DNA from: a virus | Taxonomy: Duplodnaviria; Caudoviricetes | IMG/VR virus record: IMGVR_UViG_3300030059_002417 | Location: 1 to 40,827 of that record | DNA length: 40,827 nucleotides | Reading direction: 5' to 3' (one strand) | Part shown: piece after piece, positions 8,835 through 39,197 of the stretch | Numbering within the stretch: the stretch's first letter is position 1 | Layout: every line of letters begins with the position of its first letter | Notes under the pieces: model-generated | What the model saw: only the letters and a program-made list of their open reading frames with translations | Databases searched by the model: none | What the model was told of the DNA's origin: nothing | Position numbers and translations under genes: made by a program

Positions 8835-9061
8835 AAGTGCCGGACGGCCCCAAATTTAGGGGGTGAGGGGGGTCACGGTTTTCCGTGTACCCGACCGACT
8901 GCCCCAAGTAACCCCTTGTGTGTGGCGCTTAGAAGCTTGTGATGGGCTGTTATAAGGTCACAAGTAAACGTTGCATTATTGTCACTGTCAAGCATTAAAT
9001 TACATGTGTGTGTTATTTGCCACAAGACTATAAGAATATTTATATATCGCTCGGTTACTTG

Positions 9062-9090
9062 TTGACTATCACAAGTAAAAATATTAATAT
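9062..9090 (+). promoter_or_regulatory. sigma70-like early promoter P1
   Basis: TTGACT-17bp-TAATAT upstream of the first plus-strand gene. Confidence 0.65.
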
Positions 9091-9124
9091 CGTAGATATT
9101 AACTAAGTCTTGAAAGGACACACT

Positions 9125-9367
9125 ATGAAAAAAGCAACTAGCCTAGACGTTTATAACATCGCATTATTTAACAGTAATCAAAAAGCTCAGATGATGTCGG
9201 ACCTTGAAACTCTAAAAGGTTTTGAGAAAGCTATTAAGAACCAGATCAAGAACGTAAAAGACAATGCACTTAGACTAAATAAAGCACACTACATTGTTAC
9301 TACGCAGAATATCTCTGCGAAAGAAGCATACACTCGGACTTCAAATACTTTCGCTTTTAAAGACTGA
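9125..9367 (+). CDS. Early hypothetical protein
   Basis: ATG at 9125 after GAAAGGA RBS; MKKATSLDVY... Confidence 0.7.
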   Translation: MKKATSLDVYNIALFNSNQKAQMMSDLETLKGFEKAIKNQIKNVKDNALRLNKAHYIVTTQNISAKEAYTRTSNTFAFKD

Positions 9368-9370
9368 GAA

Positions 9371-9412
9371 TGTTCTGGTGCGAGGCTTGGCAACAAGCCT
9401 CCATCCAGAGCA
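9371..9412 (+). other. Intergenic bulged stem-loop (possible RNase III site or stabiliser)
   Basis: TGTTCTGG/CCAGAGCA outer stem, GAGGCTTG/CAAGCCTC inner stem, GCAA tetraloop, no U-tract. Confidence 0.55.
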
Positions 9413-9424
9413 ATTTCGCTCTAA

Positions 9425-9703
9425 ATGGAGGACTACAATATGTTTGATCATAAATTAAAAGTAACGTATGCGATCGATACGTTGGATCCAAACCCTACAA
9501 TAAAATACTTTGACCTCTTTTACGAGGTTGAAGACTATTTAACTGAAGAGGTTGAGCGTCGAGTTCAATGGGCTGTTGACCATTCTCAAACTTCTATATC
9601 AGAGGAAGAGCGACAAGAGCTTCAAGAGATCGAGTATTCTTTAATCACTATCGAAGAGATCAAAGAAGTTCCTTTGGAGTTTGTTTTCGGTCAAGCTTCA
9701 TGA
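9425..9703 (+). CDS. Early acidic hypothetical protein
   Basis: Very acidic ORF; true start may be the second Met (MFDHK) after GGAGG. Confidence 0.7.
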   Translation: MEDYNMFDHKLKVTYAIDTLDPNPTIKYFDLFYEVEDYLTEEVERRVQWAVDHSQTSISEEERQELQEIEYSLITIEEIKEVPLEFVFGQAS

Positions 9704-9795
9704 AAGAATTCATTCAAGACTTAATAGGAGCCACTATTGTAGTGGCTCTTCCATTCGCTTTATTATGGGGAGCTTACATATGGGAAGCAATATAA
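9700..9795 (+). CDS. Small membrane peptide (31 aa), not in ORF track
   Basis: MKEFIQDLIGATIVVALPFALLWGAYIWEAI; ATGA overlap with the previous stop. Confidence 0.5.
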   Translation: MKEFIQDLIGATIVVALPFALLWGAYIWEAI

Positions 9796-9974
9796 CTAAT
9801 AAAGAACTTTCTAAGATAACCGACGTTCAAATATCTCAAGAGATAAAGAGGTTTCAAGAAGAATTAAACAATAGGAATAAAGATCGAAACGCAGAACAAG
9901 GTCTTTTCGAAAATGAGATTTGCTTAACCTACAGTTCTTATCTTTACAAACTCAAGTATAAGTTAGCAAAGTAA
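9780..9974 (+). CDS. Early hypothetical protein
   Basis: Start MGSNITNK after GGGGAG RBS, within track ORF 9681..9974. Confidence 0.55.
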   Translation: MGSNITNKELSKITDVQISQEIKRFQEELNNRNKDRNAEQGLFENEICLTYSSYLYKLKYKLAK

Positions 9975-9982
9975 CGATCAAA

Positions 9983-10007
9983 GCCTCTTCGGAGGCCTTT
10001 TTCTTTT
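9983..10007 (+). terminator. Rho-independent terminator
   Basis: GCCTC-TTCG-GAGGC followed by CTTTTTCTTTT. Confidence 0.8.
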
Positions 10008-10081
10008 CAGGCAAAAACCTGGGGCTAATCAAACCATTTATATATTATTAATAGTTCTTGTTAGTACCAGTAAAAGGGAAG

Positions 10082-10171
10082 CCCGATCCCGAACTATAAA
10101 TCCCCGAACCCCGAAGCCCGAAGCCCGAACTGATAACCATTGGTGCAAAAATCCGACCAGCAGCAACCCGA
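10082..10171. repeat. CCCGA repeat cluster 1
   Basis: 7 CCCGA copies; four at 7-bp period (10103, 10110, 10117, 10124). Confidence 0.85.
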
Positions 10172-10200
10172 CCGAATATAAAAATATTTATATAAAGGGC

Positions 10201-10228
10201 TTGTTTAATGTATAAAAATCTTTATACT
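10201..10228 (+). promoter_or_regulatory. sigma70-like early promoter P2
   Basis: (C)TTGTTT-16bp-TATACT with AT-rich upstream tract. Confidence 0.55.
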
Positions 10229-10265
10229 AAAGTTATTGTTAATGTAATTGAAAGGACTGAAAACA

Positions 10266-10406
10266 ATGACACAAAATCAATTTTTATGGTTATGTAATAG
10301 AAACACAGTCGATCCAGACGTTGCTTTGGAAAACGACGATTTGAGAAACGCATTGCAAGCAAGGGACGATGCAAAAGTAGAAAAAATCTTTATGGAGGAA
10401 TTTTAA
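10266..10406 (+). CDS. Small early protein (46 aa), not in ORF track
   Basis: MTQNQFLWLCNRNTVDPDVALENDDLRNALQARDDAKVEKIFMEEF; GAAAGGA RBS. Confidence 0.7.
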   Translation: MTQNQFLWLCNRNTVDPDVALENDDLRNALQARDDAKVEKIFMEEF

Positions 10407-10408
10407 AA

Positions 10409-10579
10409 ATGGTTATCGAAGAAATCAAAAATGAGGGTTACGCACCCGTTTATCATGTCGAAGACGACGGCTGTATTCAAGAGTTTGACACGCTTAAAGG
10501 TGCTCAAGAATTTGTAAATTATGTGCAAGGTTCAAAAGAGTACAAAACAGCAATTCATAAAATGTTGGAGGTTCTTTAA
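10409..10579 (+). CDS. Small early protein (56 aa), not in ORF track
   Basis: MVIEEIKNEGYAPVYHVEDD...; GGAGG RBS; TAATG coupling to the next gene. Confidence 0.65.
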   Translation: MVIEEIKNEGYAPVYHVEDDGCIQEFDTLKGAQEFVNYVQGSKEYKTAIHKMLEVL

Positions 10580-10785
10580 TGTGGACACATATGGAGGATC
10601 TTAAAACAAATTCGGATGCTTTAACGCTAGCTTTAACGCTAGCTTTAACAGCACCTACCGAAATTAAGGCGAAAGAATGCATCAAATATGCTGAAATGAT
10701 TGCATCTAAAATGACAGAAAAAGAAGTGGCTATTTGTCAAAAGGCCGCAAAATGCGTAACTGAATATATGGAGGTTTACAAATGA
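10579..10785 (+). CDS. Early hypothetical protein, paralog of 14605..14802
   Basis: LTLALTLALT...IASKMTEKEV matches the second copy. Confidence 0.75.
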   Translation: MWTHMEDLKTNSDALTLALTLALTAPTEIKAKECIKYAEMIASKMTEKEVAICQKAAKCVTEYMEVYK

Positions 10786-11057
10786 ACGTATCAAATATGA
10801 CATCTAACAGAGGGAATAAAGTTCCAAATCAATTCTCAATAATGGACGGAAACAAATCCTACTTCCAAAGTTATCAAACAATTATCGCCATGAAGGACAC
10901 TTCTGGCGACGATTGCCAAACCTATTTGGATTTTGATAGATGGGATTATTCAGTTACTACGTCGAAGTATCGCAATAAATGGCTTGGTATGAATACAGGC
11001 CAGATCAAAAAAGCAATTGATACAGGCGAAATTATCCTAAGAGATTTAAACAAATGA
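10782..11057 (+). CDS. Early hypothetical protein
   Basis: GGAGG RBS; FQSY.TIIA...WDYSVTTSKYRN. Confidence 0.75.
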   Translation: MNVSNMTSNRGNKVPNQFSIMDGNKSYFQSYQTIIAMKDTSGDDCQTYLDFDRWDYSVTTSKYRNKWLGMNTGQIKKAIDTGEIILRDLNK

Positions 11058-11224
11058 TCCCTTTGAAAAAAGAAATCGCAACCCTAGTTCGAACTCGGAT
11101 TAGGGAAGCACTCAAAGCAACCAACAACAACAAGGTTCAGGCCTCGAAGCTGTTAGGTTTAAAGAACTATCAAACCCTTAACAATTGGATCAAGAAATCT
11201 TGGAACCTGGAGGATAACAGATGA
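11054..11224 (+). CDS. Fis-family (HTH_8) helix-turn-helix protein, 56 aa, not in ORF track
   Basis: IREALKATNNNKVQASKLLGLKNYQTLNNW matches the Fis/NtrC C-terminal HTH; ATGA overlaps at both ends. Confidence 0.7.
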   Translation: MIPLKKEIATLVRTRIREALKATNNNKVQASKLLGLKNYQTLNNWIKKSWNLEDNR

Positions 11225-11433
11225 CTAGACAAGAACTGATTAAAGCTATGGATGATGGTCTAGAAGTGCGTTGGAAAAATGACGGTTACGAGTGTTACAA
11301 AGATACGTTTCCTAGTGGCAATAGTGAATACCGAACAACGTTTATACATAACGGTTACACAATAGGTATCTTTCACAGAGATAACATTGGAATGAATTTA
11401 GATCCAAGAGATTGTTATCTTAAGACTAAATAA
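11221..11433 (+). CDS. Early hypothetical protein
   Basis: GGAGG RBS; 70 aa; last gene of the P2 operon. Confidence 0.7.
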   Translation: MTRQELIKAMDDGLEVRWKNDGYECYKDTFPSGNSEYRTTFIHNGYTIGIFHRDNIGMNLDPRDCYLKTK

Positions 11434-11441
11434 TCAAGAAC

Positions 11442-11551
11442 CTTGCATCCGGCAGCAGTCGGGTGTAAGATTATCGGACTTGTTAGTTCTCCAATTCTAT
11501 CAAGGGGGCAAGTACTAACAGTCCTTTCATAATTGTAATAGTACTTGTCCC
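11442..11551 (+). ncRNA. Candidate three-hairpin small RNA with anti-Shine-Dalgarno loops
   Basis: Hairpins at 11442-11469, 11479-11504 and 11505-11551; G-U pairs favour the + strand; loops TTCTCCAATT and CCTTTCATA. Confidence 0.5.
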
Positions 11552-11630
11552 GATTACCCCGAACCCCGAATCACCCGAAAAATATCCCCGAAGCCCGAAG
11601 CCCGAACCAATGGTTCAAGGTCAAGCCCGA
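11549..11630. repeat. CCCGA repeat cluster 2
   Basis: 8 CCCGA copies; shares CCCCGAAGCCCGAAGCCCGAAC (11586-11607) with 10109-10130. Confidence 0.85.
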
Positions 11631-11937
11631 CCTCGGATAAGGGACCAGCCGAGCCACCGTCAAATAAAAATAGACCACGCTCCCCGACCCCCTTTACCAA
11701 GATAAAATTTACTCCCCCCTTGTGAGAGTACGAAGTATTCCACGCAATCTGGTGAGGAGACAACGAAACCTTGTTATTTTTTGTTACTTTAAGTTCCAAC
11801 CAAAAAGCCAAACCATCCCATATAATATGAACATCGGGAACTCCACCCCCATGACGGTTTTCTATACGAGTTGAGAATGAATTAGGTGGGAGGTTCTTGC
11901 GTACTGTGTTCCAAAAGTTTCCCTCTGGTGTTCCCAT
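11554..11937 (-). CDS. VRR-NUC / Holliday junction resolvase-like PD-(D/E)xK nuclease
   Basis: RIEN...GVPD...FWLELK...LSPHQIAW. Confidence 0.85.
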   Translation of the reverse strand: MGTPEGNFWNTVRKNLPPNSFSTRIENRHGGGVPDVHIIWDGLAFWLELKVTKNNKVSLSPHQIAWNTSYSHKGGVNFILVKGVGERGLFLFDGGSAGPLSEVGLDLEPLVRASGFGDIFRVIRGSG

Positions 11938-12439
11938 TTTTTACCTCTGTAAACTCCCCTTCGATAAACGCTTGAGGATATTGTTTTCTTAATTGAACAA
12001 GCCGAGCGGTTATGTCCTCTCTAGACAGATCATCAAGAGAATGAATGTTTTCCCTTCGATCCACAGTGAGTCCCCCCAAGGCACTGCGGATTTTCTCCGC
12101 ATTTATAGCACTGGAGAATTGTCCAGCATCTTCTGCTCCTTCGGATAATTCCTGCAAACGTTTAAGTTGTCCAATAACTGAGACTCCATAACGACGTTCA
12201 CGTTCCTGCCGCAGTTCGGTAATATACTCAACAACGTGAGGATACGACTTTCCATTTAACAATGTGCTTGCTGAGATACGAGCCACTTTTGGAGAATAAC
12301 CAGCTTTTCTGGCACACTCGGCATTGGAATATATTCCCTCGACATAATGTCGTGCGAACTCACGCTGACGATTAGTCAGCTTGCGATCTTGATTTTCTTC
12401 GACATCCCTTGCGATGGTATTTGCAGTGCGAGTAACCAT
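11882..12439 (-). CDS. terS: Terminase small subunit
   Basis: LTNRQREFARHYV...NAECARKAGYS HTH typical of Terminase_2; start probably MVTRTA rather than the track start. Confidence 0.8.
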   Translation of the reverse strand: MVTRTANTIARDVEENQDRKLTNRQREFARHYVEGIYSNAECARKAGYSPKVARISASTLLNGKSYPHVVEYITELRQERERRYGVSVIGQLKRLQELSEGAEDAGQFSSAINAEKIRSALGGLTVDRRENIHSLDDLSREDITARLVQLRKQYPQAFIEGEFTEVKNGNTRGKLLEHSTQEPPT

Positions 12440-12518
12440 GAGTTTTATATACAGTCTTCTGAAAAGAAATACAAAAAGAAATTTATCAAAAACGTAAAAC
12501 ACGACTGATCGGTCGTAG

Positions 12519-12689
12519 AAGTGTTACAAACGGGACAAAAGAGAAGATAATTGGGACAAACTTTTTTCAACTATATAACGCTGTAATAGACACTTGTCCC
12601 GTTTGTAACACTTGTCCCACTATAATTAAGTAAAAAAAATAAAAAAATCATTTCTTTCTACACCTCCTATAGTGCAACTCGTGGGACAA
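12519..12689. other. Origin-like element: 20-bp inverted repeat, GGGACAA iterons, AT-rich tract
   Basis: AAGTGTTACAAACGGGACAA (12519-12538) and its perfect complement (12594-12613); GGGACAA x3 and TTGTCCC x2; AT-rich 12621-12660. Confidence 0.55.
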
Positions 12690-12723
12690 ATCGGTGTATA
12701 AAAAATATTCTGAGACAAAAGGC

Positions 12724-12752
12724 TTGATCTTTCGTTAAATGTAGCCTAAACT
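12724..12752 (+). promoter_or_regulatory. sigma70-like early promoter P3
   Basis: (C)TTGATC-17bp-TAAACT. Confidence 0.6.
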
Positions 12753-12784
12753 AGTCGGATAAGCATTTTAATTGGAGAACGAAA

Positions 12785-13249
12785 ATGAACTTAGAACTAA
12801 AGAATATTAAATACAGCGACTTTGCTTCCGAGGAGACCAATTGTTATAGAGGTCATTTATATATTGATGGCAAGAAGATTGCTATTGTTTCAAATGACGG
12901 TCGTGGTGGTTGTGATTACTTCCACGCTGAAGAGGGTGTTTCCCCTACGATTGAACGAGAAATCCTTGCGTATTTCAAAACACTTCCAAACGTCCCTTGT
13001 GAGTATATTAAAGGTGGTCTTTCCCATGACCTAGAGTCGTGGTGCGGTGAGCAAGTTACAAAGTTTTTGGCATCGAAGGATTTGAAGCGTCGTTTAAAAA
13101 AGGGGTCGATGATCAAGGACGGTGATTCCTTACATTCGTGGAAAGGTTTTCTTGCTTCGGATGATATCAAGAAGCATTATCCCAAAGCAATTATTTTTAA
13201 TGATCTGTCTTTTGACGAGGCACTAACACTTTACATGGGAGAAGCGTAA
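12785..13249 (+). CDS. Early hypothetical protein
   Basis: GGAGAA RBS; SEETNCY...NDGRGG. Confidence 0.8.
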   Translation: MNLELKNIKYSDFASEETNCYRGHLYIDGKKIAIVSNDGRGGCDYFHAEEGVSPTIEREILAYFKTLPNVPCEYIKGGLSHDLESWCGEQVTKFLASKDLKRRLKKGSMIKDGDSLHSWKGFLASDDIKKHYPKAIIFNDLSFDEALTLYMGEA

Positions 13250-13626
13250 TGGATTTTAATAAATCAACATTGCAAGTTATTCGGGAGAAGATGCAAGAAG
13301 CGTTGAACGACGTAAGCTGTTTCCATTCTCTTGCAGATTTAAACTTTGTCGTAGGGAATTGTTCTTATGATGAACACAGTGCAACGTTCAAGGTCACTAT
13401 TAGTAATGAGGGTGGAGTGTCGAAAGAGGAGCGAGATTTGGAGCAGATGGCTCGTCTTCATGAGTTAGATGTGAACAAGGTTTCCACGATTAGTGGAAAT
13501 ATCAAGGTTACACTTTCTGGATTTCGTTCTCGTGCGAGGAGCAAACCTTACATGGTTCGATCTGTTGATGATCCGAGCAAGCAGTTTATTATTACGACGA
13601 AACAAGCGAAGGAGATGTTTTCATGA
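13249..13626 (+). CDS. Early hypothetical protein
   Basis: TAATG coupling; 125 aa. Confidence 0.75.
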   Translation: MDFNKSTLQVIREKMQEALNDVSCFHSLADLNFVVGNCSYDEHSATFKVTISNEGGVSKEERDLEQMARLHELDVNKVSTISGNIKVTLSGFRSRARSKPYMVRSVDDPSKQFIITTKQAKEMFS

Positions 13627-14568: not shown

Positions 14569-14604
14569 GTGCAATGACGCACGAATCCAGAGTAGGAGAA
14601 CAAC

Positions 14605-14802
14605 ATGGATATTAAAACAACTTCAGAAGCATTTACACTTGCGTTGACGTTAGCCGTAACGGGGACTGACGAAGCGAAGGTAAAAAAGTGCAAAGAAATG
14701 GCAGAATATTTGGCATCTCAAATGACAGATAAGGAAGTGGAGTTATGTTTCGCTTCGGCAGAGCGAGCCATTCAGTATGCAGAGGAGTATTCACATGGGT
14801 AA
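14605..14802 (+). CDS. Hypothetical protein, paralog of 10579..10785
   Basis: AGGAG RBS; FTLALTLAVT...LASQMTDKEV. Confidence 0.75.
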   Translation: MDIKTTSEAFTLALTLAVTGTDEAKVKKCKEMAEYLASQMTDKEVELCFASAERAIQYAEEYSHG

Positions 14803-15669: not shown

Positions 15670-15841
15670 AATAAAAGAACTAGTCCCACGATGCGATGAG
15701 TGCAATTCAAAAGATGTGTACAGAAAGCAAGACGCATCTTGGAGCAAGAAAACACAAGGTTGGACACAAGTTGAAAGTATCGAATACTACTGCCTCCAGT
15801 GTGGAAATTCTAGAGTGGATGTTGGGGAGGAGTTTTATTAA
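15662..15841 (+). CDS. Small zinc-ribbon protein
   Basis: CDEC...CLQC; TAATG coupling to the MTase. Confidence 0.65.
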   Translation: MPKIKELVPRCDECNSKDVYRKQDASWSKKTQGWTQVESIEYYCLQCGNSRVDVGEEFY

Positions 15842-17037
15842 TGCTTAGACACGTTGATTTGTGTTCGGGGATCGGGGGCTTTGCTCTCGGTTTCCAATGG
15901 GCAGAGTTGTCCAAAACAATAATGTTTTGCGACACTGAGAAGTGGTGTCGTGAAATCCTAGCGAAGAATTTTCCAAACGTACCAATAACTAACGATGTAA
16001 AGGAGTTAGCAAATGACCCAGAGAGACTTGTTCCCGACCACGATATCCTCACAGCAGGATATCCATGTCAGCCGTTCTCAGTTGCGGGACGGCAAAAAGG
16101 CGAGAAAGATGACCGCCACATCTGGCCGTACATCTTTAGAATTATTGCATGCAAAAGACCCACTTGGTGCGTTTTCGAAAACGTTTATGGTCACGTTGCC
16201 TTGGGTCTCGACAAAGTGCTCGCTGACTTGGAAAGTGAAGGCTACTCCACAAGGACGTTTATTGTACCAGCTTGTGCCAAAGACGCACCCCATCGAAGAG
16301 ACCGACTCTGGATTATCGCCAGAGTTATGGCCGACTCCGAGAGTGGGGGGCGAGGAAGGAATGGAGACCTTGACGAAACGCAAGGGAGTTCGCAAAGCGA
16401 TGCAACACAATCTGACAGCTTCGGTGGAATATCATCAAGACCCGACATTGTGGCCGACACCACTTTCCTCGGATTACAAGAACATGGATACAGCAAATCA
16501 GGAAAGTTTGTCGAAGGCAGTCAAGATGTGGCCGACTCCGAGAGTGAGCGACACCGAGGGAGCAGTAGTGAAGAACGTGGAGATGAACAACGGATCGTTT
16601 TCTCGCACGAACAAGGACGGAGTTCGGTGGGGAGTGAAGTTGAAGGACGCAGTTCATCATGTGGAGAAGATGTGGCCGACTCCGACAGCGACGACGAACG
16701 GAGCAGGGAAAAATCCAGACAATCCGAGGGGGATACATCAAGGGAACGCACTGGCGACGGCAGTTTCGATGTGGCCGACTCCGACGACGAGGGATCACAA
16801 GGGGGGATACATCGGGGGGAGAATTCGGAACGGCAAAGTTTCGATGGACACTCTGGACGTAGCCGTTCAACACACCGACAACCAGAACAAGACTTCTGGG
16901 CAGTTGAACCCGACGTGGGTCGAGTGGCTCATGGGATACCCAGAAGGGTGGACAGACTTAAAGGATTAGGAAATGCAATCGTGCCACAAATTTCCATGCA
17001 GATTGGTCTGGCGATAAAAGAGGAGATTGAGAGGTAA
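15841..17037 (+). CDS. DNA (cytosine-5) methyltransferase, catalytic (alpha) polypeptide lacking a clear motif IX
   Basis: Motif I DLCSGIGG, IV GYPCQPFS, VI FENV, VIII PHRRDRLW, X LGNAIVPQ; middle is S/G/E/R-rich with VAD[S/T] repeats. Confidence 0.92.
   Translation: MLRHVDLCSGIGGFALGFQWAELSKTIMFCDTEKWCREILAKNFPNVPITNDVKELANDPERLVPDHDILTAGYPCQPFSVAGRQKGEKDDRHIWPYIFRIIACKRPTWCVFENVYGHVALGLDKVLADLESEGYSTRTFIVPACAKDAPHRRDRLWIIARVMADSESGGRGRNGDLDETQGSSQSDATQSDSFGGISSRPDIVADTTFLGLQEHGYSKSGKFVEGSQDVADSESERHRGSSSEERGDEQRIVFSHEQGRSSVGSEVEGRSSSCGEDVADSDSDDERSREKSRQSEGDTSRERTGDGSFDVADSDDEGSQGGIHRGENSERQSFDGHSGRSRSTHRQPEQDFWAVEPDVGRVAHGIPRRVDRLKGLGNAIVPQISMQIGLAIKEEIER
16013..16969 (+). CDS. Nested +1-frame MTase beta polypeptide with five WPTP modules and motif IX
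   Basis: AAGGAG at 16000-16005, 7 nt before ATG; 318 aa open inside the MTase gene; C-terminal GQLNPTWVEWLMGYPEGWT is motif IX-like. Confidence 0.8.
   Translation: MTQRDLFPTTISSQQDIHVSRSQLRDGKKARKMTATSGRTSLELLHAKDPLGAFSKTFMVTLPWVSTKCSLTWKVKATPQGRLLYQLVPKTHPIEETDSGLSPELWPTPRVGGEEGMETLTKRKGVRKAMQHNLTASVEYHQDPTLWPTPLSSDYKNMDTANQESLSKAVKMWPTPRVSDTEGAVVKNVEMNNGSFSRTNKDGVRWGVKLKDAVHHVEKMWPTPTATTNGAGKNPDNPRGIHQGNALATAVSMWPTPTTRDHKGGYIGGRIRNGKVSMDTLDVAVQHTDNQNKTSGQLNPTWVEWLMGYPEGWTDLKD
16325..16790 (+). repeat. Five dispersed direct repeats TGGCCGAC(T/A)CC bounding variable modules
   Basis: TGG starts at 16328, 16451, 16529, 16673 and 16772; GATGTGGCCGACTCCGA is identical in copies 3-5. Confidence 0.9.
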
Positions 17038-17585
17038 TGCCACTTAGGGATAAAGAAAAAATAAGGGAGCGACAGAGAAAATGGTATCAAGAAAATAAAG
17101 AAAAAATTAAAGAGCGACAGAAAAAATTGTACGAAGCAAACAAAGAAAAAATAAGGGAGCGAAATAAAAAATATAGGGAGGAAAACAAAGAAAAAATTAA
17201 AGAGCGAAAGAAAAAATATAAGGAGAAAAACAAAGAAAAATATAACGAGTATCACAAAAAATATAAAGAAGAAAACAAAGAAAAATATAACGAGTATCAC
17301 AAAAAATATAAAGAAGCAAACAAAGAAAAAGTAAGCGAGAGAGGTAAAAAATATAGAGAAGCAAACAAAGAAAAAATTAAAATGTTAGATAAAAAATATA
17401 GAGAGAAAAACAGAGAAAAAATATTAGAGCGACAGACGAAATCTAGAGAAAATTTGACGGATTATTATGTTAAACGTATTTTAATCGACAGAACTGATTT
17501 AACTCATAAAGATATACCTCAAGGATTGATTGAGGCAAAGAGAGAATTAATTAAAATCAAACGGTTTATAAGAGAGGAGACGTAA
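17037..17585 (+). CDS. K/E/R/Y-rich 15-aa repeat protein, paralog A
   Basis: Nine 45-bp units at 17052-17456 (KEKxxExxKKYxExN), then LTDYYVK...LTHKDIPQGLIE domain. Confidence 0.8.
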   Translation: MPLRDKEKIRERQRKWYQENKEKIKERQKKLYEANKEKIRERNKKYREENKEKIKERKKKYKEKNKEKYNEYHKKYKEENKEKYNEYHKKYKEANKEKVSERGKKYREANKEKIKMLDKKYREKNREKILERQTKSRENLTDYYVKRILIDRTDLTHKDIPQGLIEAKRELIKIKRFIREET

Positions 17586-18346
17586 TGCCTCATGCGTGTC
17601 CAATAATAAGGAAAGAATATAAAGAAGAAAACAGAGAAAGGATATCAGAATACCAGAAAAAATATTACCAAGATAACAAAGAGCGTATAGCCAAGCGTGA
17701 TAAAGAGTATCGGGAAAACAATAAAGGACGTAAGTGTTCAATAAGAGAGAAGGAGTATAATAAAAAATATCATCAAGAAAACAGAGAAAGGATATCAGAG
17801 CGACAGAGAAAATATAGAGAAGAAAACAGAGAAAAATATTTAAAGAGTCAAAGAGAATGGTACGAAGCAAACAAAGAAATAATATCAGAGCGTTGGAGAA
17901 CACGATACAAAGAAAAAGCAACAGAGCAAAGGAGAAAACATAGAGAAGAAAACAGAGAAATAATATTAGAGCGTGAGAGAAAATGGAGAAAAGATAATAA
18001 AGAAAAAGAAAGCGAGCGAAAGAAAAAATGGAGAAAAGAAAACAGAGAAAAACACTTAGCTCAACAAAAAAAATATAGAGAGGATAATAGAGAAAGAAAC
18101 AGTAAGTGGTCTAAAAAATATTACAAAGAAACATTAAAGGAGAAGTTGAATAAATGTAAAGAAGATCTGAGTGATAGTTATGTTAAAAGTCTTTTAACTG
18201 TCGATAGCAGTTTAACTCATAAAGACATACCTCAAGGATTGATTGAGGTTAAGAGAGAATTAATGAAAATCAAACGGTTTAAAAAAGGGAGAACCAGAAA
18301 TGAAAAATGTAGTAGAACTAAGAACCCAACTTGCAATCGCTTTTGA
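17585..18346 (+). CDS. K/E/R/Y-rich 15-aa repeat protein, paralog B
   Basis: About ten ExNRExxxxxxxKY-type units, then LSDSYVK...LTHKDIPQGLIE. Confidence 0.8.
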   Translation: MPHACPIIRKEYKEENRERISEYQKKYYQDNKERIAKRDKEYRENNKGRKCSIREKEYNKKYHQENRERISERQRKYREENREKYLKSQREWYEANKEIISERWRTRYKEKATEQRRKHREENREIILERERKWRKDNKEKESERKKKWRKENREKHLAQQKKYREDNRERNSKWSKKYYKETLKEKLNKCKEDLSDSYVKSLLTVDSSLTHKDIPQGLIEVKRELMKIKRFKKGRTRNEKCSRTKNPTCNRF

Positions 18347-38925: not shown

Positions 38926-39197
38926 CCTACAAAAGTCGTTCCTGCTGATATCGCTGCGTTGATTGCGGTCATGTCCTCACTGCCCCAATCATCTCTAGCC
39001 ATCATGGTTACAAGGTATCCCATGCTGCGTGACACTCTTTCTTTCTTTTCATCATGGCTCATGTCATGCCCAAAGTCTCTATCTGTTGCAGCACTGCCTT
39101 TGTCATGCGTAGCTATAACGATTGTAATAGTACTTGCACCACCTAAACACGCTGCGTGATTTTGTGCTTTTAGTTCGTCTGTCCTTGCTTCAGCCAT
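38922..39197 (-). CDS. Hypothetical protein downstream of the tail fibre
   Basis: AAGGAG RBS; 91 aa. Confidence 0.7.
   Translation of the reverse strand: MAEARTDELKAQNHAACLGGASTITIVIATHDKGSAATDRDFGHDMSHDEKKERVSRSMGYLVTMMARDDWGSEDMTAINAAISAGTTFVG

Follow-up and report, generated by a model that had tools for sequence, protein, structure and literature searches.

A three-hairpin element of a marine phage with loops complementary to ribosome-binding sites of its putative early genes

Introduction

How might a lytic phage that has neither a polymerase nor a sigma factor of its own close its early phase? Early-gene shut-off in such phages is poorly known. The question is raised here by a 110-nt gap (positions 11442–11551, hereafter the element) in virus record IMGVR_UViG_3300030059_002417, a linear record of 40,827 nt that is ~69% complete and is called the window below. 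Three + strand clusters of small hypothetical genes (P1, P2 and P3) lie there, flanked by the large-terminase side and the replication genes; each is preceded by a promoter-like site (P1 9062, P2 10201, P3 12724), and the element follows P2. We conclude that the element likely encodes a small RNA that would act in trans, pairing over Shine-Dalgarno (SD) tags of early genes and shutting off their translation as a group, with a delay. The basis is predicted structure, complementarity to ribosome-binding sites (RBSs), conservation, and lineage-wise co-variation of the pairing segments (seeds) with the RBSs; from these we infer transcription, RNA ends, pairing in vivo, repression and timing.

Judging by its DNA polymerase, which is 48–55% identical to those of 023Pt_psg01, DSL-LC04, HTVC023P and HTVC027P, the window phage is an HTVC023P-like marine phage. 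BLASTn of window positions 9000–13300 against phage records gave no matches.

Complementarity to early ribosome-binding sites

An earlier note on this DNA, made from the letters alone, had reported three exact matches between the element and RBSs, and every coordinate proved right, that of the 9-nt match at 9111 included. Positions 11486–11496 in hairpin 2 are the complement of 12770–12780, positions 11519–11529 in hairpin 3 that of 10249–10259, and positions 11521–11529, again in hairpin 3, that of 9111–9119 (targets are listed in Table 1). No exact complement of the element on the window + strand is longer than these two 11-mers. On the − strand there was one 16-nt match (39121–39136), inside a late gene and involving the hairpin-3 stem. 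The test for chance compared 2000 dinucleotide shuffles of the element with the 22 nt before 57 gene starts: one 11-mer occurred in 56 shuffles, two in 2, and the 11+11+9 combination in 1. A control sliding 110 nt across the window was set aside because it was dominated by windows overlapping RBSs of the other strand.

When the 57 gene starts were scanned with weighting for accessibility, using a 77-nt form of the RNA, the top four were 10266, 12785, 14605 and 9125. As computed, the loops pair in trans with mRNA of the phage itself around the RBS, and hairpin 3 is predicted to pair with an RBS of its parent operon, that of the first P2 gene (10249–10259). All predicted targets in the window are hypothetical early genes. 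The two loops would serve two tags, one of the GGAGAAC/GGAGGAC type and one of the GAAAGGAC type. The duplexes are short, with predicted net energies of −9.6 to −13.3 kcal/mol, and repression is their predicted effect. The RNA could also pair with the tags yet stabilise or store the messages, or tune translation instead of shutting it off; we consider this very improbable, as the duplex covers the SD core itself. A duplex over that core blocks 30S binding.

Fold and possible origin of the predicted RNA

The + strand of the element folds into three hairpins at −43.7 kcal/mol (z −6.82, 0/200 shuffles), against −24.7 kcal/mol (z −2.27) for the − strand. This bears out the earlier description of three adjacent hairpins in which G-U pairs, three of them in hairpin 1, favour the + strand. 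The three loops are AGCA, UUCUCCAAUU and CCUUUCAUA. That the seeds lie in loops was confirmed for hairpin 2, with 10 of 11 seed bases in its loop (11487–11496), and only partly for hairpin 3, with just 7 of 11 (11523–11529) and the remaining four in a weak 5-bp upper stem.

The P2 message may end in hairpin 1 or be processed there. This hairpin also contains a promoter-like site, TTGCAT-17-TAAGAT, with a predicted start near 11477–11478; the site was not called by the consensus scan and may act as a promoter. The promoter-in-hairpin layout recurs with other sequences at five other loci (L003, L021, L022, L023 and L152), and most of the 31 elements examined had no match to it. The RNA may thus arise as a ~75-nt primary transcript with two hairpins, from the P2 message as a ~110-nt product, or in both ways. 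Because hairpin 1 holds this site, in an arrangement also present at those five loci, an independent ~75-nt RNA is as likely as the 3′-end-derived RNA of the earlier note, whose preference for the latter we do not share.

C-rich CCCGAA repeats adjoin the element on its 3′ side and are a possible Rho loading site; comparable repeats lie behind the element in many relatives. Family-wide, strand-biased short repeats (window 10100–10130 and 11548–11610; GCGCAAG and GCCGCAG runs in relatives) trail the terminator or element of each early unit, and they are partly translated as the nuclease C-terminus.

Close relatives

A near-identical element was found at 14 loci, 2 from one scan and 12 via the hairpin-2 sequence. 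All 14 have the same hairpin-3 loop region on a variable stem; hairpin 1 retains its stem and varies in its loop, and most stem changes preserve pairing. Pair counts on alignment A3 were not used for stem covariation, its structure being misregistered (33% paired; 63% when slid by +1) and loop lengths differing between rows. The genes behind the tags are swapped between strains, and the RBSs of the new genes are still complementary to one or other loop. The RBS match reaches 13 nt (L020, L171). The first P2 RBS, complementary to hairpin 3 in the window, is complementary to hairpin 2 over 13 nt in L020. Internal genes are matched too, besides operon-first genes.

Seeds and ribosome-binding sites change together

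Three viral-contig scans yielded 161 loci; with the window added, duplicates merged and short loci dropped, the set comprised 104. Sufficient early region was present at 92 of these, and at 86 an RBS 8-mer was common to at least two early genes. The complement of the locus's own shared 8-mer was present in + strand non-coding DNA of the early region at 59 of the 86 loci. By comparison, it was present on the other strand at 15 of 86, in coding DNA of equal length at a mean of 2.0, and after shuffling at a mean of 5.7 (maximum 9). Cross-pairing of loci with disjoint motifs gave 346 of 5486 (6%).

These counts bear on one alternative, that the element is a mere terminator or stability structure between convergent operons, its complementarity arising by chance or from shuffling of RBS cassettes. 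Its location suits such a role, and pyrimidine-rich loops easily match purine-rich RBSs, as in the 56 shuffles with one 11-mer above. The 59 loci and their controls nonetheless largely refute it, and own-versus-other specificity, invariant loops, open seeds and recurrence in unrelated scaffolds leave it highly improbable.

In a sister clade (L003, L008, L009, L021–L023) this position is taken by a long hairpin of another kind, whose loop is the complement of TAGAAAGGATAG-type RBSs on up to six of six genes. Seed hairpins followed by a terminator were found in L103, L110, L112, L121 and L124–L126; the CTTG(T)TAGT-seed-CAAG hairpin of L103, L110, L124, L125 and L126 is similar to hairpin 2 of the window. 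Other relatives have a pseudoknot-compatible 5′ part, then an open seed, then a terminator. Two identical loops are present in each of L071, L075 and L086.

For a choice of scaffold by structure only, 43 loci were picked by the pseudoknot pattern alone. Seeds in this set form two blocks, each fitting its own RBS type and not the other: GCTCCTT seeds reached 7.3–10.0 nt against AAGGAGC-type RBS sets and 5.0–6.3 nt against AAAGGAA-type sets; TCCTTT seeds showed the reverse, with 6.7–10.3 nt against AAAGGAA-type and 5.3–6.9 nt against AAGGAGC-type sets. Seed classes track clades on a quick tree of the terminase small subunit (TerS) and nuclease. Of 26 elements, 22 have a seed that is more open than the sequence around it, and 18 are followed by a U-run on the + strand. 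The co-variation of loops with RBSs that the earlier note had looked to in related genomes is therefore present: an exposed, conserved seed changes together with its targets across clades and scaffolds. On this comparative evidence the note's central proposal, a phage RNA that would pair with the phage's own early RBSs, is strongly supported; its restriction of the targets to operon-first genes is not.

The pseudoknot pattern itself was found at 58 of 104 loci, against 16–23 in shuffles. A compact H-type pseudoknot-compatible motif (CCC...stem...GGG...stem) stands directly 5′ of the seed in L147, L128, L054, L134, L040, L131 and ~37 more early regions, with compensatory changes in its second stem. 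It may shield the RNA 5′ end.

Host messages with similar RBSs had also been named as targets, in which case the RNA would serve host takeover and the phage match would be incidental. The seeds do hold general anti-SD cores, and cuckoo RNAs use anti-SD loops (PMC4615179). However, outside the SD core the seed bases follow the RBS of the phage itself and change along with it. Such tracking would be needless in a host-directed RNA, which should moreover spare the phage's own genes, so host targeting is not supported and we rate it quite improbable. The targets that sequence comparison supports are the phage's own genes.

Cultured phages and the SAS motif of mycobacteriophages

HTVC027P, the cultured member of the group, is described as obligately lytic, with a latent period of 18 h (PMC12753301). 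Its candidate element has a seed that starts 6 nt after the gp39 stop codon, between two hairpins (L162, − strand, ~3500–3440), and that is complementary to the RBSs of gp36 and gp38. Genes gp36–gp39 are classed as early, peaking at 3 h and dropping 16- to 34-fold by 15 h; gp36 falls from 164,962 transcripts per million (TPM) at 3 h to 4,912 TPM at 15 h (PMC12753301 Table S3). This drop, in mRNA shares, is compatible with shut-off by an antisense RNA and is no proof of it. A further candidate, in DSL-LC04, is a seed with a terminator that matches two annotated RBSs (L164:10630–10680).

The start-associated sequence (SAS), a tag of unknown role in cluster K mycobacteriophages, has one inverted copy in four K1 phages (Pope et al. 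2011, PMC3203893). In Adephagia there are 16 forward SAS and one inverted copy, which lies in the loop of a long hairpin in the gap between genes 92 and 93 (L166:48560–48720; region z −5.25), where late transcription starts (PMC11373665). The hairpin is a candidate anti-SAS RNA. Adephagia gp39 is listed as Hfq-like in a table of PMC11373665. A Pfam search of 18 proteins found no Hfq-like chaperone among the early genes of the window, and neither did an atlas search with the 70-aa gene that precedes the element.

Comparison with known systems

Among known systems, the c4 antisense RNA of phages P1 and P7, and with it the CI RNA of phage P4, come closest. c4 is phage-encoded and acts in trans (PMC12197685; PMC8546580), and the element, as read here, resembles it in both respects, in carrying its complementary stretches in loops, in pairing around the RBS of its own mRNA, and in a specificity that differs between related phages. 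Unlike c4, which governs one antirepressor operon in temperate phages, it would reach many early genes, spread over several operons, by way of an RBS tag common to them; the cultured member HTVC027P is described as lytic, and the scaffolds are several and unrelated. Rfam gave no family at gathering score, C4 included, in the window or 10 relatives, and a single chance microRNA match (E 1) in 11380–11620. The icd-ant setting of C4 was likewise not seen: no antirepressor, repressor or integrase was found among the 42 proteins scanned in this ~69% complete window.

The likeness to c4 raises the possibility that the main role of the same pairing is to silence the early genes of a later-arriving kin phage (superinfection exclusion), with seed and tag diverging to escape exclusion. 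P1/P7 heteroimmunity rests on c4 (PMC12197685), the 18-h latent period of HTVC027P would suit such a role (PMC12753301), and turnover of seed and tag is rapid from one sister clade to the next, the scaffold being replaced as well. Yet cross-reactive seeds are common to several distant clades, and self-shut-off accounts for the match without exclusion. Both roles are compatible; as the main one, exclusion appears unlikely.

OppZ and CarZ of Vibrio cholerae (PMC7398697) are, like the element as read here, RNAs at an operon 3′ end that pair with RBSs of their own transcript in negative feedback, with Rho involved for OppZ. They differ in being bacterial, confined to a single operon and derived by RNase E, whereas the element's predicted targets lie in three or four operons and a promoter of its own is possible. 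SAS (PMC3203893; PMC11373665) is likewise a conserved RBS extension on non-structural genes, and K1 phages have an inverted copy without a start. Phages and sequence are unrelated, and no antisense partner for the inverted copy is proposed in the available portions of those two papers.

AbcR and cuckoo are alphaproteobacterial small RNAs that use anti-SD loops in multi-hairpin scaffolds, and the earlier note had set the element beside both. Cuckoo RNAs (RSs0680, alpha-r14; PMC4615179) do share adjacent hairpins with anti-SD-like loops, and the three hairpins of the element fall within their range of two to four; a loop repeated twice is seen in L071, L075 and L086. Cuckoo loops, however, all carry CCUCCUCCC and act on host genes, whereas the element's loops lack CCUCCUCCC, are lineage-specific and match the phage's own RBSs. 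With no Rfam match either, kinship with them does not hold up. As read here, the element works like c4 and OppZ/CarZ, yet it stands outside C4 and cuckoo membership; it departs from the known systems in a tag that spans the regulon, in the lytic setting and in scaffolds that turn over. Literature searches, judged by title and the start of the abstract and leaving subscription papers mostly outside, gave no description of a phage RNA complementary to an RBS that early genes have in common. 'Small RNA' and 'noncoding' are absent from the available main text of PMC9599517 and PMC12753301.

Evidence weighing against an antisense RNA

Several observations weigh against, or fail to support, a small RNA that acts on tagged early genes. 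The window element has no intrinsic terminator. In three RNA runs (X1–X3, low share, 5% of words) contigs cover 11227–11424 and 11542–11692, and none lies over the element. The "early" status of the window clusters P1–P3 is suggested by gene layout and by analogy with HTVC027P. No complement of the shared RBS was found at 27 of the 86 loci, in some of which (e.g. L104, L044) spurious open reading frames (ORFs) masked a visible seed. Within each seed block specificity is poor: of 13 hand-picked seeds, 10 had the own RBS set as their best match, alone or in a tie, and those of L103, L110 and L028 fitted another phage better. Because of kinship among the loci, the counts stand for roughly a dozen independent lineages. 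Among cultured phages, the 16 kb of HTVC023P that were examined contain no seed with several targets, and the only seeds of 023Pt_psg01 are ambiguous; neither TM4 nor Pixie has an inverted exact SAS 9-mer.

The strand evidence is also divided, the + strand folding better in just 11 of 26 elements when wide windows are used and in 8 of 11 with tight spans. This leads to a further alternative, in which the tag would be a motif bound by a protein and the element an inverted copy of it, either a DNA site (stoperator-like, and in sense for the convergent late operon) or a − strand RNA decoy with GGA loops for a translational repressor. Stoperators are DNA sites, and CsrB is an RNA decoy that presents GGA loops to a translational repressor. 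Besides the wide-window result, such a role would suit the position of the element in the window and the sister clade, at the 3′ end of a convergent − strand operon and without a + strand U-run. Against it, G-U pairs favour the + strand in the window and in the tight spans, and most clades have the element inside the early region with a + strand terminator. Seed-tag differences compatible with U-G wobble suit base pairing, and no consistent − strand mini-ORF lies behind the mirrored RBS. We regard a protein motif or decoy as improbable and retain the antisense RNA as the likely reading.

A model for early shut-off

In the mechanism we propose, early genes would bear a private extension of the SD sequence that serves as an address tag. 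The RNA would build up during early transcription, whether as a ~75-nt transcript started at a promoter within hairpin 1 or as a ~110-nt fragment released from the end of the P2 message. Its loops would begin pairing at the tag, upon which the weak stems would open and ribosomes would be kept off the tagged messages; these, untranslated, would be degraded or terminated by Rho. The outcome would be a delayed negative feedback, by which the early phase would close with no need for a sigma factor or repressor encoded by the phage.

More tentatively, and with somewhat more doubt than confidence, we suggest that a private RBS barcode on whole early regulons and its matching antisense RNA might amount to a repressor-operator system that needs no protein and works on translation. 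Reinvented on more than one RNA scaffold, it would set the time of the switch from early to late genes and also act as a code of immunity to phages of the same kin. If true, this would also explain the SAS of cluster K mycobacteriophages, unexplained since 2011, and it offers a testable answer to the role of that motif in a cultured, genetically tractable phage. The match of seed and RBS further supplies a predictive rule, by which the shared early RBS of a phage leads to the location of its RNA, and natural orthogonal RBS/repressor pairs for synthetic biology.

Other features of the early region

The mapped features are collected in Table 1. A convergent two-gene operon sits between P2 and P3, and the stop codon of its resolvase-like nuclease gene falls 2 nt past the element end.

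Table 1. Features of the window in and around the element, in order of position
Feature	Position	Strand	Basis	Remarks
P1 promoter-like site, TTGACT-17-TAATAT	9062..9090	+	consensus scan	
RBS of first P1 gene (9125-9367), target	9111..9119	+		complementary to hairpin 3 over 9 nt, and over 11 nt in several relatives
RBS of gene 9440 (GGAGGAC-type), further predicted target	9426..9438	+		hairpin 2 through U-G wobbles
P2 promoter-like site, TTGTTT-16-TATACT	10201..10228	+	sequence reading	absent from consensus-scan list
RBS of first P2 gene (10266-10406), target	10249..10259	+		11-nt complement to hairpin 3; top predicted target among 57
Hairpin 1	11442..11469	+	folding	12 bp; three G-U pairs on +; loop AGCA; no seed
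Promoter-like site, TTGCAT (11443-11448), 17 nt, TAAGAT (11466-11471)	11443..11471	+	sequence reading	within hairpin 1
Hairpin 2	11479..11504	+	folding, complementarity	seed 11486-11496 in loop
Hairpin 3	11505..11551	+	folding, complementarity	seed 11519-11529; no U-run behind
C-rich CCCGAA repeats	11548..11610	+	repeat scan	adjoin element on 3′ side; also at 10100-10130
Convergent small operon: terminase small subunit and resolvase-like nuclease	11554..12439	−	PHROG search	
Resolvase-like nuclease gene	11554-11937	−		our own label; PHROG matches weak or otherwise named
Terminase small subunit gene	11882-12439	−		
P3 promoter-like site, TTGATC-17-TAAACT	12724..12752	+	sequence reading, regex flag	
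RBS of first P3 gene (12785-13249), target	12770..12780	+		11-nt complement to hairpin 2
Terminator	14539-14562			gene at 14605 is the first behind it
RBS of gene at 14605, further predicted target	14589..14605	+		hairpin 2 with bulges

A − strand mini-gene behind the mirrored RBS was tried as a candidate and rejected, there being no consistent ORF. Between the first two P1 genes (9361–9438, +) a long hairpin (−35.6) conceals CCUCCAU, which if unfolded can pair with the RBS of gene 9440 (−21.8). This cis switch is retained in relatives, with both sides altered together in L180, and is possibly a translational coupling or processing site. Three CAAATGAAAATA repeats upstream of P1 (8677–8795) are possible regulator sites. 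A 56-aa early gene (11054–11224, +) has a Fis-family HTH_8 match (E 6.6e-5) and possibly encodes a transcription regulator. The small early proteins at 10579–10785 and 14605–14802, in different operons, are alike and share an ALTLALT motif.

Between the small terminase start and P3, near the turn in GC skew, a 27-nt inverted repeat with GGGACAA repeats (12512–12620) resembles an origin or packaging site. The DNA methyltransferase gene (15841–17037, +) contains a long nested ORF in another frame (16013–16969, +), and both have PHROG methyltransferase matches. It is followed by two tandem lysine/arginine-rich repeat proteins (17037–18346) with similar C-termini, which are homing-element-like.
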